Source of the DNA: a virus
Taxonomy: Duplodnaviria > Heunggongvirae > Uroviricota > Caudoviricetes
Virus record (IMG/VR): IMGVR_UViG_2737471844_000006
Length of the DNA: 47,932 nucleotides
Strand: one strand, 5' to 3'
Shown here: positions 2,794 through 9,448 of the stretch, one piece after another
How positions within the stretch are numbered: position 1 is the stretch's first letter
Layout: each line of letters opens with the position of its first letter
The notes under the pieces: model-generated
What the model was told of the DNA's origin: nothing
The model's input: only the letters and a program-made list of their open reading frames with translations
The model's database searches: none
Translations under genes and position numbers: made by a program

Positions 2794-5407
2794 TTGCATA
2801 TTCCTTAGCCCAGCGGGGCAGTGATAACGTCTTAATAGCTGGCCATTCATCGGTATTGAGGCAGTCAGCCAGGGTTCGCAGATTGCGGTGATATTCCAGC
2901 TGACCTGCCAGTTTTGCTTCTTCGCCCATCATGAAAATTTCAACCGGATAACGTCCGCATTCAATAGTTGTGCTGGCAACCAGAAAAACGAAAGTTGGCT
3001 GCACTCCAAACTGTGCTTCATAACCGTCACTGTAGAATGCATCCTGAACGTGATAGCGGTAGTCGTAATAAGCGGTTTTGAATCGTTGAATATCCGCCGT
3101 AGTTTTCACGTCCATAATCCAGTGAAATTCAGGGATAATTTTGTCCGGACGGCACCGACACAAAATTCCTGTTTCAGGATCTTCCCAGTAAATTGATGAT
3201 TCAGCGTGTCCGGCGCTTTCAACAAGCCATTGCCCCAGCGGCAAAGCCATAACGCTTTGATACATGAGTTCAATTTTCCAGCCTTCTTCCGCAGTGATAA
3301 CCGTTTTTCCTGTGCTTGCGCATTCCATCAGAAACGCTTTCTCTTCTTCTTTTCCGGCGTTTGTACGGCGGTTAAATTCAGGTGCTACGATAAAGCGGTT
3401 ACTGAATTCTTCCGGTTCAAGTACCCGGCAGTGGAAAGCGGTTCCTAAATCGAGCGTTTTTGTCTTTGTGGTGTCCACGGGGGCATTTTTACGCCACAAA
3501 TACAGTGCCGGAGTATCAGCAATGTCGTCGAGCTGAGACTTACTGACACCGGGACCCGCGTGGTAATTCTCATTCGAAATTCCGTAATAAATACCTGGCT
3601 CTATGTCTTCTACGATTACGGGATCTGCGACTTCGCCAGTTTCATCACTGCAATCGTGATGCGGATCGCTGCCAGCATTCTCATTGTGCGGATGTTCAGC
3701 GCCTTCCATTTCCTCCGGATCATTTTCCTTAGCTTCAACCTGATTCTCTTCATCGAATGTTTCCTGGTATGTTGCGTCGCCCATCACCGCACCATAGTCA
3801 GGGCAGTTATCCCCGCCAGTCTGACCGCAGGCATTGCAGACTATTTCCGGTTCCTGTTGCACTACTGGCTCAGGTTGTTTCACATCCGGGCTGGTTTTTT
3901 CCGTTTCTGGCGTGTTTTGTTCCGTTTCTGGCTGGTTCTGGTACACAGAATCGCGAGTCTGGATCCCCTTAACCCATTTCGGATTGTTCGGGTCGCTAAT
4001 TCCGTCAACAAATTCACCACGTGATGCAGCAAGCAATTTATCGGCATCGACAGGATTTTTTGATGGAATGTTTTTCCGGGCTTTATGGAGTTCTGCCCGC
4101 AGTTCCTGATATTTCGCATCAACAGAATTTACCTGTGACTGAGCATCCAGCGGCTGCGTGTCCTGATGATGTTTAGTTGCGTCCGGTTCCATTGTTTCAG
4201 CCTCTCCCTGTTCATCTGCCGTTGTTCCAGATGGTTGCGGTTTTTCTTCATCATCCTGTTTTCCTTCTTCTGTTACTCGCTGCGGTATTGGGGCAGAGGA
4301 GCGACCGCAGGCAATATCCACGATTTCCGGATCAGGGTTGGCATGATCGGTTTCAGTCAGTACTTTGTTCAGATATTCAGTGACGTGCGCGGGGATGACC
4401 TCGATCCCAATTGGTGCTTCTTTTACGGACGCAACCACGATGGCGCGGGAATAATCCAGCCCGCCAGGCATGGTGATGAATTTGTCGCGGAAAACAGAAA
4501 AGGGCGGTTTATTTTCAGCGATAATTTCCTCAATGCGTTTAGCGTGTGCCGGATGAAGGTTATAGATGTCCAGATCCATTGAGCGGGCCAGTACGCCAGT
4601 GGCTACGTCGCGCGCCAGTGACGTCAGATCGTGTACGAAACCTTCGCCGCGATCGGTGAGGTTTCCGCCGCCAGCATTAGCACCGGAAGCCGTGCGAGTG
4701 ATGTGTGAAACACGATTACCCTTCATCCACTCTTTTGTCAGCAGTCCTCGATCGGTGTAGTCAGCGTTCAGGTATGCTTCGAAAAAAGCAGTTATCAGTC
4801 CCAGGTTTGAATTACCAGGATTAGGGAAAACTTTGTCAGTGTCACGAACCAGTTTGTGGAGATCGCGAATTTCCAGCGGGTCGAGCAGGCTGGTTTTGTG
4901 GGAAACAGCCAGGGCAGTAACAGCCGGTAGTTCTTCAGCCCGAGCAATGTGTAATGCCTGGAGTCCGTCGCGTGAAACGTGCGTTACCGGTTTTTCGCTG
5001 CCGTGTTGAGCAAGCCAACGAATGGGCAGTTCCTGGCCAGAAATTGGGAGTAGCATATTATCCTCAATCTCAGTCATGTCTTCGCCGTTGACGTTGGTAT
5101 TGCCTTGATAGTGAGCGTTGTCTGGTGCTGCTCCCGGTTTTAGTTCCCATGTCATGGAGTCTTTGCTGAGTTGATAGCGTTCACTCCAGGTAAAATCGAT
5201 CTCACCTTCAGTGGGCAGGTCATTAACGACAGGAAAATTCGTGGCAACAGGTTTAAAATAGCTGCTCAGTTTTTTACCTGACTTAACGAGCAGGTAGTCC
5301 AGAGTGGCACAGGTCGATTCAAAATCGTCGCTTGCCCACAGGACGACGTCAGGTTCACCGGATGATTTTTTCGCTTTCCGTAAAAGGAAGAGTGGTTTTG
5401 TGCTCAT
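2786..5407 (-). CDS. recE: Exodeoxyribonuclease VIII RecE
   Basis: 873-aa ORF starting [20 protein letters not shown]..., recognisable as RecE; 3' end overlaps recT start. Confidence 0.95.
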
Positions 5408-5505
5408 TGTTTTTTAACCTCAACTCAGATTAAAATTACTGCGAGTGATGAATAAATGTCCCAGGTTCTTCACTCAGGCCTGCACGTTGTGCAGGCTTTC
5501 TTTTT

Positions 5506-5781
5506 TCAGATTTCACCTTTTAATTTCATTGCAATCAGAGTTGCCAGAAATCCGGCTTTTTTTTCTGCGGGCAGATTCTTTCCGATGTGAACCAGACTCA
5601 TTTTTGTGACACCTTCATCAAGTGTTTTTACGTTGCCTGATGGGCCGTCAATATCAACCACAGTGAATGGGGTTTCTTTATTTTCTGTTTTAATCACGTA
5701 GCCAATACGCTTTCCTTCCAGATTAACCTCGTGAACAATGTCATCAGTAGTTACAACAGTGGCTTCATAACTGGTAATCAT
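5506..5781 (-). CDS. racC: Rac prophage protein RacC
   Basis: 91 aa from internal Met (MITSYEATVVTTDD...), matches RacC as recalled. Confidence 0.75.
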   Translation of the reverse strand: MITSYEATVVTTDDIVHEVNLEGKRIGYVIKTENKETPFTVVDIDGPSGNVKTLDEGVTKMSLVHIGKNLPAEKKAGFLATLIAMKLKGEI

Positions 5782-5855
5782 GTTTTTCTCCTTAATTAAG
5801 GTTGAGCGAATCCCTGCCATTGCTGGCATAAATTCAGTTTCGCATAGTCAGTTAA

Positions 5856-6026
5856 TTAAAGTTCGTGTGCCATCTGGTCTTTTTCGGCACAACTTTCACT
5901 ACAATATTTTTTCATTTCCGTCGTTGGGATAACTCCACGCATGAAATGAAGTGGTCTTTTAATACTTTTGCTTTCTTCAATTTCTTTATTGCAAAGGTGG
6001 TAAGCACATTTTATTTTCTTAGTCAT
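5856..6026 (-). CDS. ydaE: Zinc-binding small protein YdaE
   Basis: 56-aa ORF missing from the track (under 60 aa); [19 protein letters not shown]...CSESCAEKDQMAHEL with Cys pairs; ATG overlaps kilR stop (ATGA). Confidence 0.7.
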   Translation of the reverse strand: MTKKIKCAYHLCNKEIEESKSIKRPLHFMRGVIPTTEMKKYCSESCAEKDQMAHEL

Positions 6027-6247
6027 CACCATGACTCCGCCTTTACAGGTAAACCATCACGACCGAGGAAGACTTTAATCATGCAGTCAGTAATGCATGT
6101 TTTTGTGGTCAGGTTATGAATATAAAGTTTTCGCTTTTTAATATTGTTTGCCGAGGCAATATATGTCCGGCCTTCATGAAGAATATAGTCACCAGGAGTC
6201 ACACACTGACGTGGTATTTCATCAGTTCCGAAGTGATGTGCAATCAT
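6026..6247 (-). CDS. kilR: Cell division inhibitor KilR
   Basis: 73 aa from [21 protein letters not shown]..., matches KilR as recalled. Confidence 0.85.
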
Positions 6248-6678
6248 AATTATCTCCATTTTTACAAATGAACTTTGTTGATGCGGTGCCTGGTGCCTCC
6301 AGGTGACGTTAACCAGTTAACAATTAACGCCGGATAATCCACCCATAACACTGATGCTTTTAACTGTTCCGCGTGCGCTTAGCCGCATTCACCGCATCAC
6401 AAAATTTACTTTAAAAAGGGGCGGACATCAGCCGAACTTCAAGAAAAAACTGATGCCGCCAAGACTACACACAGCAATGTCGTTATTTACAACCGGAGGC
6501 GCACTCCCACCATTTAAATTTAACAGACAAAACCGACTCTTTATGGATATCGGAAATGCGCCTTCGTGTTGTGCCCGGTTTTATTTCACCACCTCCGGGC
6601 TTCGGTGGTCTCTGCTATACCCCTACAGCGAGAGCTTGTGTTAACATTTCAATACCCTTACAGTTGAGAGTTATTGAA

Positions 6679-7188
6679 ATGTTAGAAAGTCTTTTAACAT
6701 TGGCAAAATTCTTTGCCGAAAAATCAGTTAGTCGGTTTATGATTACTATAGTTATATTTTTTCTGATATTAATGTTGGTACCAGAAAACTTGTCAGAGTA
6801 TCTGGAAAAGAAAAGCGCCATTCCATATTCCATGCAGCTATTTTGCTTCAGCATAGCCTTTGTCTCGACTTTAATCCTTGATAGAGTAGTAATCCTTTTC
6901 TTGAGAATGTTCTACCTGATTCGGGATTTTGTAAAAAAGCGCAAAATGCTAAAAAATCTGAATTCGCTAAATGCAGAACAAATTCGTATTATTGAATCAT
7001 TCCTCCAGTTCAATGACCTACTTACGCTTTGTCCTGAAAATCAAAGTACAGCCTTGCTTGTCAGGATGGGAATAATTCGTTTTGTTAGAAAGTGTTCATT
7101 AGGCAATAGCTCCCATTTTCAACTCGATCCCGACTATGAGGAACTAATATTTGAAGCATGGAACCCTTGCACTAAGCGCTTCGAATAA
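6679..7188 (+). CDS. sieB: Superinfection exclusion protein B-like membrane protein
   Basis: AT-rich ORF, hydrophobic N-terminal segment (ITIVIFFLILMLV); position between kilR and ydaF as sieB in Rac; start chosen at MLESLL. Confidence 0.55.
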   Translation: MLESLLTLAKFFAEKSVSRFMITIVIFFLILMLVPENLSEYLEKKSAIPYSMQLFCFSIAFVSTLILDRVVILFLRMFYLIRDFVKKRKMLKNLNSLNAEQIRIIESFLQFNDLLTLCPENQSTALLVRMGIIRFVRKCSLGNSSHFQLDPDYEELIFEAWNPCTKRFE

Positions 7189-7189
7189 G

Positions 7190-7345
7190 TTACTCCGCTA
7201 ATGTTTTGACTAACCAGCGGCGTGCGTCACTTTCAGTTTTAAACGTCCTGCTTCTGGTATATGTCATGGCGGTGAACGTTCCATCCTGGTTGGGGAACAC
7301 GCCGCACACCAGGGATTCGTTATTGCCGAGGTCGATTTTTTGCAT
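7190..7345 (-). CDS. ydaF: Rac prophage small protein YdaF-like
   Basis: 51-aa ORF not in track: MQKIDLGNNESLVCGVFPNQDGTFTAMTYTRSRTFKTESDARRWLVKTLAE. Confidence 0.55.
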   Translation of the reverse strand: MQKIDLGNNESLVCGVFPNQDGTFTAMTYTRSRTFKTESDARRWLVKTLAE

Positions 7346-7355
7346 TTTTCGCACC

Positions 7356-7490
7356 TCACATTTTGTTGTTGCGGATAGAGGCTTCTGCCTGCCAGAGATC
7401 CCAGTCGTTGCTGCGTAGAGCCTGTACAGCCTGGCTGTAAGTGATATCGCAACAATCCATCAAATACTGAACTACTTCGTAATGCACCAT
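7356..7490 (-). CDS. ydaG: Rac prophage small protein YdaG-like
   Basis: 44-aa ORF not in track: MVHYEVVQYLMDCCDITYSQAVQALRSNDWDLWQAEASIRNNKM. Confidence 0.55.
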   Translation of the reverse strand: MVHYEVVQYLMDCCDITYSQAVQALRSNDWDLWQAEASIRNNKM

Positions 7491-7659
7491 CTTATCTCTC
7501 CCCTTAACGCCGGGTGGCGGAACTAACTGCTGCACTGCAAAATTTGAATCCCGCCGTCATGTTCATACGCCTCGGGCTGGCTACTTAACCCCTTACCACT
7601 GCCTGGTAACTCGAAGTATTGCCCGGCGTTCTGTGGGGCGGGGTGGGTGGTATGCTGGA

Positions 7660-7688
7660 ACTATAGGTAATGCCTAATTGATTGTCAA
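7660..7688 (-). promoter_or_regulatory. Leftward early promoter (PL-like): -35 TTGACA, 17-nt spacer, -10 TATAGT
   Basis: Read on minus strand: TTGACA at 7688..7683, TATAGT at 7665..7660; points toward ydaG-ydaF-kilR. Confidence 0.4.
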
Positions 7689-7704
7689 TAGGCTATGCCT
7701 AATG
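7683..7704. repeat. 22-bp operator-like repeat, left copy (inverted relative to right copy)
   Basis: Reverse complement of CATTAGGCATAGCCTATTGACA; same 22-mer at 8326-8347; contains TGCCTAAT half-sites. Confidence 0.6.
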
Positions 7705-7797
7705 TTTTGGGCGTAACCTAATAGGTGATGGCGACAGGAGAAAGTGATGGGGGGTTAAATAACGGAATCCAGGAGTTTTCCGTCAGACCATATAAGT

Positions 7798-8274
7798 TTA
7801 AGTTCCAGTTTTTGTGATGTTCTGGCTTTTCCGTTCAGATTCTAGAGCTTTCAGATACTTACCCACTTTCATTTCCATCGCTGCTATGTAGGCGCGAACA
7901 TCGTGGTCAACCCAATCTGGTTCTGTAGCATTTCCAGATAACAGGAAAGCTACAATCGCTCTTATTTCATCAGAGGCTGCTTGATAAAGGTTGTTTATAT
8001 CTAAAAGTTCACTTTTTGTATCTGAATTGGTGGGGGTTGGTATGGGGTATTCGTTAAGCCCCCAATGCTCTGGACCAACAACATCAGAAAAGAAACGCCA
8101 TAATTCTGGAAGTTTATCTTTACTTATGGAGCCTTTCTTAATCCAGTCATAAATTGATGGTGGTTGGATTTTGAAGTGGCGTGCGACCTCCGCCTTTGAT
8201 TTGACGGATCCCGATGCGATTTTTTTGTTAATGGCCTGCTCTATCGCTCGGCCTAAGTCTTTACCACTAAGCAT
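7798..8274 (-). CDS. racR: Rac prophage repressor RacR
   Basis: 158-aa ORF, N-terminal HTH-like region; divergent from ydaS; flanked by operator-like repeats. Confidence 0.85.
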   Translation of the reverse strand: MLSGKDLGRAIEQAINKKIASGSVKSKAEVARHFKIQPPSIYDWIKKGSISKDKLPELWRFFSDVVGPEHWGLNEYPIPTPTNSDTKSELLDINNLYQAASDEIRAIVAFLLSGNATEPDWVDHDVRAYIAAMEMKVGKYLKALESERKSQNITKTGT

Positions 8275-8325
8275 TGCTTAATATTCTCCTATGCTCATTG
8301 CATTAGGCAATCCCTACCTTTATCG

Positions 8326-8347
8326 CATTAGGCATAGCCTATTGACA
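8326..8347. repeat. 22-bp operator-like repeat, right copy
   Basis: CATTAGGCATAGCCTATTGACA; further ATTAGGCA-like 8-mers at 8302 and 8363. Confidence 0.6.
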
Positions 8348-8371
8348 TTTATGTTAGGCGTCGCCTAATAT
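8342..8371 (+). promoter_or_regulatory. Rightward early promoter (PR-like): -35 TTGACA, -10 TAATAT
   Basis: TTGACA at 8342-8347, TAATAT at ~8366-8371, about 27 nt before ydaS ATG. Confidence 0.45.
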
Positions 8372-8397
8372 TTCTGTGTGTTTTTGGAGTTCATTCG

Positions 8398-8694
8398 ATG
8401 AAAAAAGAGAACTATTCATTCAAGCAAGCTTGTGCTGTTGTCGGTGGGCAATCAGCAATGGCTAGGCTTTTAGGTGTATCACCTCCAAGCGTAAATCAAT
8501 GGATCAAAGGGGTACGTCAATTGCCTGCCGAGAGATGTCCAGCAATTGAACGAGCAACAAGAGGTGAGGTTCTGTGCGAAGAGCTTCGTCCTGATATTGA
8601 CTGGTCATATTTACGACGTTCGGCATGTTGTTCGCAGAATATGTCAGTGAAGCAACTAAATGACAGTAACAAATCCTCATTTGATCATACCTGA
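8398..8694 (+). CDS. ydaS: Cro-like HTH regulator YdaS
   Basis: 98-aa ORF with HTH (QSAMARLLGVSPPSVNQWIKG); first gene of rightward operon. Confidence 0.85.
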   Translation: MKKENYSFKQACAVVGGQSAMARLLGVSPPSVNQWIKGVRQLPAERCPAIERATRGEVLCEELRPDIDWSYLRRSACCSQNMSVKQLNDSNKSSFDHT

Positions 8695-8716
8695 AACATC
8701 AAGAGGCAAATGATTC

Positions 8717-9139
8717 ATGAAAATCAAGCATGAGCACATCGAATCAGTGTTGTTTGCCCTGGCAGCCGAAAAAGGGCAGGCATGGGTAGCCAATGCAATT
8801 ACTGAAGAATATCTGCGCCAGGGGGGCGGCGAATTGCCCCTGGTTCCAGGCAAGGACTGGAACAATCAGCAGAATATCTATCACCGTTGGTTGAAAGGTG
8901 AAACGAAAACGCAAAGAGAAAAAATTCAGAAGCTGATCCCAGCAATTCTGGCAATCCTTCCGCGCGAGTTGCGTCACCGACTCTGCATCTTCGATACCCT
9001 GGAACGCCGTGCATTACTGGCGGCGCAGGAAGCGTTAAGTACGGCAATTGATGCGCATGATGATGCAGTCCAGGCCGTTTACCGGAAAGCGCATTTCAGC
9101 GGCGGCGGTTCTTCCGACGATTCTGTCATTGTTCATTAA
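8717..9139 (+). CDS. ydaT: YdaT (CII-like regulator / putative toxin)
   Basis: 140-aa ORF directly after ydaS; sequence recalled as YdaT. Confidence 0.85.
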   Translation: MKIKHEHIESVLFALAAEKGQAWVANAITEEYLRQGGGELPLVPGKDWNNQQNIYHRWLKGETKTQREKIQKLIPAILAILPRELRHRLCIFDTLERRALLAAQEALSTAIDAHDDAVQAVYRKAHFSGGGSSDDSVIVH

Positions 9140-9145
9140 GGTGAT

Positions 9146-9448
9146 GTGGTGATGGAAAAATATGAACTGAAAAAATACCGACTTAAAACACTGGAAGGCG
9201 AAACATTGCTTCAGCGTATAGCCCGAAATGTTGCCTGGTATGCCATACGACTCTCTCTGCATCGCCATCTTGTTAACGGGTATCCCTCGTCAACGCTGTT
9301 GTTCATCAATATCAAAGATAAAGAAAAAGCCGCAGAACACATTCGGTGGATGGAACTGGCGCAGGGACAAGCTCTTGATATTGAGTATGGCGATGAGATC
9401 GACTACAGCAAAGCTCAACCGCTGCGCCACGTAATTTTTAGGGGGTGA
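9146..9448 (+). CDS. Hypothetical protein
   Basis: 100-aa ORF 7 nt after ydaT; no recognisable motif; marks where the Rac-like match ends. Confidence 0.45.
   Translation: MVMEKYELKKYRLKTLEGETLLQRIARNVAWYAIRLSLHRHLVNGYPSSTLLFINIKDKEKAAEHIRWMELAQGQALDIEYGDEIDYSKAQPLRHVIFRG

Follow-up and report, generated by a model that had tools for sequence, protein, structure and literature searches.

The viral DNA record IMGVR_UViG_2737471844_000006 (47,932 nucleotides, analysed whole and referred to below as the window) carries a Rac-type prophage, in which the repressor gene racR very probably forms the centre of a lambdoid immunity region, lying between a left (OL) and a right (OR) operator cluster from which the promoters PL and PR point outward. 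The right-hand side of this arrangement is known, and the left-hand set seems to be the apparently undescribed half of an otherwise characterised switch. Others have already shown that RacR binds and represses on the right, that the leftward genes are derepressed as its level drops, and that it forms octamers in solution; binding of RacR to OL, the activity of PL and the position of its start point are what we infer here. The window is not K-12 itself: among complete genomes the best match reaches 99.4%, and K-12 shares 99% identity with its left control region and 97% with its right one.

Two inverted dyad/promoter cassettes flank racR

The 22-mer CATTAGGCATAGCCTATTGACA is found at 8326-8347 on the plus strand and as its exact reverse complement at 7683-7704, with one copy per strand in the window, as the original prediction had reported. 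The pair was the top inverted repeat in a separate inverted-repeat search, and no further copy was found in the window at up to 3 mismatches, nor any in 100 dinucleotide shuffles. The 22-mer is the core of two clusters of a 17-bp dyad, ATTAGGC-n3-GCCTAAT, three on the left, and three on the right with a fourth, weaker one. The extra half-sites about 25 bp away that had been described earlier are thus real, but they are full dyads rather than stray half-sites. Dyad matches in the window numbered 10, against 1.95 expected, and 7 of the 10 lie within the two clusters. Successive dyads are spaced by 25 and 19 bp on the left and by 25 and 26 bp on the right, and the centres of OL2 and OR2 are 640 bp apart. 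The operators (listed without strand) and the promoter elements are the following.

7651-7653, minus strand: predicted PL transcription start, A7653 or A7651, placed 7-9 nt past the -10
7660-7665, minus strand: PL -10 hexamer TATAGT (promoter scan), fused to the dyad end
7662-7678: OL1, left dyad TATAGGTAATGCCTAAT, 4-nt overlap with the PL -10, 1 core mismatch
7683-7688, minus strand: PL -35 hexamer TTGACA (promoter scan), 17-nt spacer
7687-7703: OL2, strong left dyad AATAGGCTATGCCTAAT, 2-nt overlap with the PL -35, 0 mismatches in 10 core positions
7706-7722: OL3, weak third left dyad TTTGGGCGTAACCTAAT, 19 bp from OL2, 3 mismatches to ATTAGGCnnnGCCTAAT
8266-8282: fourth right-hand dyad ACTAAGCATTGCTTAAT, covering the racR start codon (ATG)
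8302-8318: OR3-equivalent dyad ATTAGGCAATCCCTACC, within the racR promoter region; intergenic RacR footprints (PMC9638921)
8327-8343: OR2 dyad ATTAGGCATAGCCTATT, 2-nt overlap with the PR -35 (PMC9638921)
8342-8347, plus strand: PR (PydaST) -35 hexamer TTGACA (promoter scan; verified promoter, PMC11879457)
8353-8369: OR1 dyad GTTAGGCGTCGCCTAAT, 4-nt overlap with the PR -10
8366-8371, plus strand: PR (PydaST) -10 hexamer TAATAT (promoter scan; PMC11879457)

In agreement with the earlier reading of the letters, TTGACA in both copies can serve as the -35 hexamer of a sigma-70-like promoter pointing outward. PL is near consensus, matching 11 of the 12 sigma-70 consensus positions, and PR matches 10 of 12 with an 18-nt spacer. 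On each side the hexamers are fused to the two best dyads, which lie 25-26 bp from each other; the result is a cassette of about 46 bp, [dyad]TTGACA-n5/6-[dyad]TA(A/T)A(T/G)T, that is inverted around racR. Over the 10 core positions of the footprinted RacR consensus, OL2 matches throughout and OL1 has a single mismatch, as good a fit as that of OR1, OR2 and OR3. Dyad clusters with a shared consensus and outward promoters on both sides of racR bear out, at the level of sequence, the proposed likeness to the lambda OL/OR geometry, and they support the reading of the left cassette as a putative second operator/promoter set for RacR.

The exact 22/22 match of the two arms holds in this allele but is not general. 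It was found in 26-27 of 85 related loci; K-12 and 33 other loci show a one-base difference, located in the central spacer of the right-hand dyad, and both arms are present at up to 2 mismatches in 84 of the 85. The conserved feature is the dyad/promoter cassette and not the exact 22-mer.

The left cassette is kept in relatives and alleles

RacR relatives of 57-62% identity in Mixta, Morganella and Proteus carry, downstream of the repressor gene, a two-dyad cassette that faces away from the gene. The same outward cassette lies downstream in betaproteobacterial relatives from Achromobacter and Pigmentiphaga, which share only the N-terminal domain of RacR. The cassette in these homologues has the form [dyad]TTGACA-n5/6-[dyad]TAATAT, and its mean pairwise identity across lineages is 0.78, compared with 0.27 in the 50 nt on either side. 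OL2 is kept in the Mixta, Morganella, Proteus, Achromobacter and Pigmentiphaga loci, and the OL1-OL2 distance of 25 bp is the same in every homologue. The TTGAC of the PL -35 is invariant in 6/6 lineages, while the counterpart of the PL -10 reads TAATAT or TACTAT in the same place, again fused to the dyad end. OL3 is variable among alleles (G to A in K-12) and missing from the cross-genus homologues. Every RacR relative found keeps the TAGGC half-site, which makes a test for operator/repressor co-variation impossible.

Substitutions among close alleles were compared in 83 loci with 42 distinct left alleles, taking OL1, OL2 and the hexamers as functional columns. Variable columns made up 5/34 of the functional positions and 41/105 of those elsewhere (Fisher p = 0.011 on the 42 alleles, with columns that are not phylogenetically independent), and minor-allele cells per column averaged 0.29 and 2.10, respectively.

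In the Achromobacter and Pigmentiphaga loci, conservation of RacR is limited to its N-terminal, DNA-binding half (73-74%), and the two-dyad cassette (3672-3715 in locus L010, 4615-4658 in locus L011) lies 0.9-1.9 kb downstream of the matched part of RacR. The module in these hosts probably has a different C-terminal domain, extra genes between the repressor and OL, or both. A further locus, L004 (JARKOR010000130.1), is a 5.2-kb contig of a 'Candidatus Nanosynbacter' metagenome-assembled genome whose RacR is 99% identical and has operators of the E. coli type to its left and right; the contig is most likely a binning contaminant from E. coli.

The right-hand side corresponds to the published RacR switch

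The gene identities given in the original prediction (racR, ydaS, ydaG, ydaF and kilR) are correct by the open reading frames (ORFs) and the K-12 annotation. The repressor and the rightward genes are located as follows.

7798-8274, minus strand: racR, repressor gene, 158 aa (ORF list; K-12 annotation)
8398-8694, plus strand: ydaS, Cro-like gene (Pfam YdaS_toxin PF15943, 2.6e-31; P22_Cro, 3.4e-9)
8717-9139, plus strand: ydaT, CII-like gene (Pfam PF06254; PMC11879457, PMC9986795)

The rightward promoter and RacR's binding at the right-hand sites, both proposed earlier from the sequence, are experimentally established (PMC5700373, PMC9638921, PMC11879457). The 123-bp racR-ydaS region gives three RacR shift complexes, and RacR is enriched there in chromatin immunoprecipitation with quantitative PCR (PMC5700373). 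DNase I footprinting yielded the RacR operator consensus (T/A)TAGGC-n3-GCCTA(T/A), with one site over the racR ATG; the dyad at 8266-8282 is the published RacR operator 3, which overlaps a C-protein site, and OR1 was inferred to have the highest RacR affinity (PMC9638921). PydaST was described as a very strong promoter, with exactly these hexamers and an 18-bp spacer in K-12 (PMC11879457). A functional analogy of YdaS and YdaT to Cro and CII has been published (PMC5917428, PMC11879457). RacR itself is an octamer in solution (151 kDa by size exclusion), which its authors read as four dimers on the four right-hand repeats (PMC11014345).

The one Pfam match in RacR is a weak one to HTH_17 (residues 28-61); the search gave no S24 peptidase domain (Peptidase_S24, LexA-like autocleavage), and a different fold has been reported for its C-terminal domain (PMC11014345). 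As Pfam shows no S24 domain, RacR is not a CI-family protein; in its action at the DNA level it is CI-like.

Between racR and the left cassette lies one further element.

7762-7783, minus strand: hairpin ACGGAA-n10-TTCCGT followed by UUAUUUAA, 15 nt past the racR stop codon and just upstream of OL

In alleles of 91% amino-acid identity the stem at 7762-7783 reads ACGGGAA/TTCCCGT, with one base gained in each half and pairing kept. This hairpin may be the 3' end or a stabiliser of the racR mRNA.

Sites downstream of racR receive no mention in PMC5700373, PMC9638921, PMC11879457 or Jobling's letter on CI, Cro and CII (PMC5917428), and the name "ydaG" has zero occurrences in the two operator-mapping papers (PMC9638921, PMC11879457). 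Literature searches on RacR ChIP-exo, on RacR SELEX (systematic evolution of ligands by exponential enrichment) and on sbcA operator mutations found nothing relevant.

Leftward genes rise when RacR falls

Leftward from PL, the first genes and the toxic target are the following.

7356-7490, minus strand: ydaG, first gene past PL, 44 aa (ORF list; K-12 annotation; weak UBA_4 match)
7190-7354, minus strand: ydaF (DUF1391), homologue of Qin ydfA (Pfam PF07151, E = 1.7e-25; K-12 annotation)
6026-6259, minus strand: kilR (FtsZ inhibitor) ORF, target of leftward transcription (ORF list; K-12 annotation)

The genes following kilR are ydaE, racC and recE, and no minus-strand intrinsic-terminator-like site was found between PL and kilR. 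When RacR was lowered by an interfering regulator, ydaG, ydaF, ydaE and racC rose about 40-fold and kilR more than 70-fold (PMC6765115), and xisR and intR rose about 100-fold only when RacR was low (PMC11014345). CRISPR interference (CRISPRi) lowered racR mRNA 11- to 20-fold and raised ydaG, kilR, ydaE, racC, recE, recT, ralR, xisR and intR (bioRxiv 10.64898/2026.09.06.749655). A fall in racR mRNA accompanied by a rise of the leftward genes calls for an independent RacR-sensitive promoter downstream of racR, and cannot be explained by read-through from the racR promoter. The proposal that RacR may control both early operons, kilR included, is supported.

A route to kilR by Rho-sensitive read-through from the racR promoter has also been described: a Rho-dependent terminator, trac, lies inside racR, and kilR toxicity was attributed to its read-through (PMC4150792). 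A NusG/OxyS route to kilR has been reported as well (PMC5793797). For trac, PMC4150792 puts the Rho-loading site upstream of racR, in an 'untranslated region +1 to +210'; the racR-ydaS intergenic region (8275-8397) is only 123 bp, which implies either that the 'PRM' start of that paper lies inside ydaS (possibly the later-described PracR4) or that the numbering differs.

The leftward genes do not form the uninterrupted, co-oriented ydaG-ydaF-kilR operon that had been supposed, as a plus-strand gene in the sieB position (about 6690-7210) lies between ydaF and kilR in the window. This gene is strongly diverged from K-12 sieB, although its flanks are nearly identical to K-12, and the homology of the best genome matches is also lost at this gene. 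It looks like a superinfection-exclusion cassette swap, placed antisense within the putative left operon. In the isolated phage vB_EcoS-683R6, which has no gene at the sieB position, the RacR module is followed by a ydaG-ydaF-kil-ydaE-racC-exoVIII operon that is not interrupted.

Upstream of kilR, at 6240-6473 on the minus strand, two Rfam matches below threshold stand side by side: STnc100 (44.9 bits, gathering score 47) and DicF at 6419-6473 (41.1 bits, gathering score 48). In K-12, the small RNA KilS is annotated here. A DicF-type RNA like that of Qin may thus be part of the Rac left operon.

A leader shared across immunity types begins just past the predicted PL

The segment between PL and ydaG contains a feature that is not specific to RacR phages.

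7499-7654, minus strand: leader of the leftward operon, about 155 nt, common to phages of at least 18 immunity types

Similarity to phages with a different immunity starts at 7654-7640, a few nucleotides past the PL -10, and extends to 7499, which puts the operator/promoter DNA within the exchangeable immunity module. Across 85 leader copies, 18 unrelated promoter/operator classes stand directly upstream, the RacR-operator class among them, nearly all with a recognisable -35 and -10. This break in homology, together with the promoters before the leader, points to a PL start at about A7653 or A7651 (K-12 coordinates ~1,419,619 or 1,419,617, minus strand).

The leader is nearly invariant and was found in 3,810 of 5,426 complete E. 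coli genomes, always between the repressor-side promoter and the first gene of a ydfA/dicB/kil-exoVIII operon. It is 85-89% identical to phages of other immunity types and 76% identical in an Actinobacillus phage. Its first 30 nt are C-rich (18 C, 3 G). The minimum-free-energy z-score was weak (-1.74), as was covariation, with one compensatory pair found by RNAalifold on 59 distinct copies, and we claim no structure. An Rfam search of 5400-9300 gave no match in the leader or the control regions. The window holds no second leader copy that could form a nut/put-like pair, and neither early operon contains a boxA-like sequence; boxB was not searched systematically. The possibility that the leader encodes a conserved small ORF was considered and rejected, as the alignments show a 7-nt indel between Rac-type and Evi-type leaders that shifts the frame. 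The Actinobacillus copy belongs to phage vB_Apl-pPE4 (PP818812.1), which has the leader, a dicA-like repressor, ydaT, kil and exoVIII in the order of Rac/Qin phages; the phage is reported from Actinobacillus pleuropneumoniae, and its module reflects either an unexpectedly wide host range or a host misassignment.

The leader may act in cis as an RNA element of an undescribed kind, such as a switch for Rho loading or anti-termination; it would then control whether transcripts from PL are elongated into kilR/dicB and the genes for recombination and excision.

Comparison with lambda, Qin and CP-933P

As in lambda, the repressor gene lies between operator clusters that each hold three imperfect 17-bp dyads of one consensus, and the two dyads next to each promoter reach into the -10 and -35 of early promoters that face outward. 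The Rac spacings (25/19 bp on the left, 25/26 bp on the right) are close to those of lambda, where operator centres are 24/20 (left) and 24/23 (right) apart. Both have a divergent Cro-like gene followed by a CII-like gene (in Rac by Pfam), a left operon with kil, recombination genes and xis/int, and a repressor that forms octamers in solution (RacR: PMC11014345). Unlike the lambda repressor, RacR lacks an S24 peptidase/LexA-like C-terminal domain, a different fold being given in the literature. The OL-OR distance is 640 bp in Rac and about 2.3 kb in lambda, the Rac distance being shorter because no rexAB-like genes follow racR, and Rac has the extra dyad over the racR start codon. With respect to N and nut, Rac has no N gene or boxA-like nut site; it carries the conserved leader instead, and its first gene is the 44-aa ydaG.

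Among homologous arrangements, Qin dicA/dicC-dicBp and CP-933P PaaR2-PL933P come closest. Qin shares with Rac a short, non-cleavable repressor with three operators on each side; the Qin repressor DicA represses the PL-like dicBp (PMC10448788). The Qin left operon starts with a DUF1391 gene (ydfA, like ydaF) and includes a cell-division inhibitor, as in Rac, and a DicF-type RNA, for which Rac has the match below threshold. Of the leader, K-12 Qin has the 3' ~35 nt, and Qin-like phages such as Tritos have the whole. The two differ in repressor family, in operator sequence and in the division inhibitor, KilR in Rac and DicB in Qin; moreover, dicBp has been tested experimentally, rising 22-fold in a dicA deletion, whereas Rac PL is predicted from sequence. 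Anchoring PL to the mapped dicBp of K-12 Qin by full homology was rejected: as only the 3' ~35 nt of the leader are shared, the anchor is one of synteny.

CP-933P resembles Rac in its YdaS/YdaT-type right operon and octameric repressor, PaaR2 (PMC8630535). Its PL933P, with -35 and -10 identical to those of PR and three operators (OL1-3), was found by analogy to lambda and is regulated in a reporter fusion (PMC8630535). CP-933P differs in the repressor PaaR2, in its operators, which are GTTTAGTAA repeats, in a toxin-antitoxin pair between repressor and PL, and in that its PL was tested by reporter fusion.

Proposed mechanism and alternative explanations

We propose a model in which RacR dimers on OL1/OL2 and OR1/OR2 would exclude RNA polymerase from PL and PR. 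The right cassette (OR1/OR2 with PR, that is PydaST) would silence ydaS-ydaT, and the left cassette (OL1/OL2 with PL) the early-left transcript. On release, the PL transcript would start near 7653, pass through the conserved leader and ydaG-ydaF, and run towards kilR, ydaE, racC, recE, recT, ralR, xisR and intR. The weaker sites (OL3, OR3 and the ATG site) would have a modulating role, the right-hand ones autoregulating racR. Termination by Rho and NusG would form a second layer, acting on read-through from the constitutive racR promoter, which is active in the lysogen.

Several points weigh against this model or its novelty. The published RacR binding experiments were all performed on the racR-ydaS fragment only, and for the left cassette the accessible literature yielded neither a binding assay nor a reporter or a mapped start site. 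The plus-strand gene between ydaF and kilR means that PL transcripts must run antisense through it, and the leftward derepression could be partly indirect, via YdaS/YdaT or prophage excision. A Klebsiella relative (locus L008) has no downstream cassette. The substitution result on the left is modest, and the same test on the validated right side gave 9/48 against 25/78 (p = 0.15). As to novelty, no description of the left cassette was found in the accessible literature, with Conter et al. 1996, Cardinale et al. 2008, EcoCyc and RegulonDB outside that coverage; an earlier description is therefore possible. Conter et al. reportedly described repression of kil from its natural promoter by racR.

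It is improbable that the left dyads bind RacR but serve no working PL, acting instead as looping auxiliaries for OR or as a roadblock that, together with the Rho-dependent trac, stops transcripts from the racR promoter before ydaG and kilR, the leftward genes being expressed by read-through only. Such an account would fit the rise of Rac genes upon Rho/NusG defects or bicyclomycin and the attribution of kilR toxicity to read-through (PMC4150792, PMC5793797), as well as the RacR octamer in solution (PMC11014345). However, TTGACA/17/TATAGT is near consensus and conserved together with the dyads in six lineages, 17 other immunity classes carry a promoter at the equivalent position before the same leader, and 11- to 20-fold lower racR transcription under CRISPRi raises the leftward genes rather than lowering them. 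A roadblock and looping are compatible with PL too, and it is only the absence of a promoter that these data disfavour. Activation of the leftward genes by YdaT, YdaS or excision, with the left dyads serving mainly another protein such as YdaS, appears very unlikely, even though activation by YdaT has been demonstrated for host genes and for at least one Rac promoter (PMC11879457, PMC11014345) and all in vivo derepression data come from cells in which ydaS and ydaT were also induced. The left dyads carry the RacR consensus and not the reported YdaT box (PMC9986795), and a promoter with an 11/12 match should need no activator. Binding of YdaS would, on the lambda model, add to control by RacR rather than replace it, as Cro in lambda shares the operators of the repressor.

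It is hardly credible that, in a decaying cryptic prophage, the left copy merely persists as a relic without function or was recently derived from the right one by gene conversion. The 22/22 identity, which includes the non-contacted central spacer, could suggest recent copying, and Rac is defective in K-12. Against this, the exact match is confined to certain alleles and the majority differ in the spacer, the cassette persists from genus to genus amid randomised flanks and also in the isolated phage vB_EcoS-683R6, and substitutions avoid the functional positions of the left cassette. The lambdoid arrangement with RacR-controlled promoters on both sides remains the preferred explanation.

Given a strong pair of dyads on either side, a bridge between OL and OR, as in lambda, and the four right-hand dimers are equally good readings of the RacR octamer; looping between OL and OR over 640 bp is speculation. 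In such a bridge, an octamer spanning OL1-OL2 and OR1-OR2 may close a 640-bp loop around racR by means of an oligomerisation domain unrelated to that of CI. Taken together, this bridge and a leader acting as an undescribed cis-acting RNA element form a tentative extension of the model that is rather doubtful.

The architecture is textbook lambdoid, as the lambda model predicts, and is useful to the specialist rather than surprising. Published work on RacR has treated the protein as regulating the racR-ydaS intergenic region, and one paper notes that RacR's regulon still awaits detailed characterisation. A RacR-controlled PL, if true, would provide a direct mechanism for the 40- to 100-fold rise of kilR, recET, xisR and intR, and also for the excision of Rac upon RacR depletion and for the RacR octamer. 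It would likewise join the two accounts of kilR control, with the repressor acting at PL and Rho/NusG acting on read-through.

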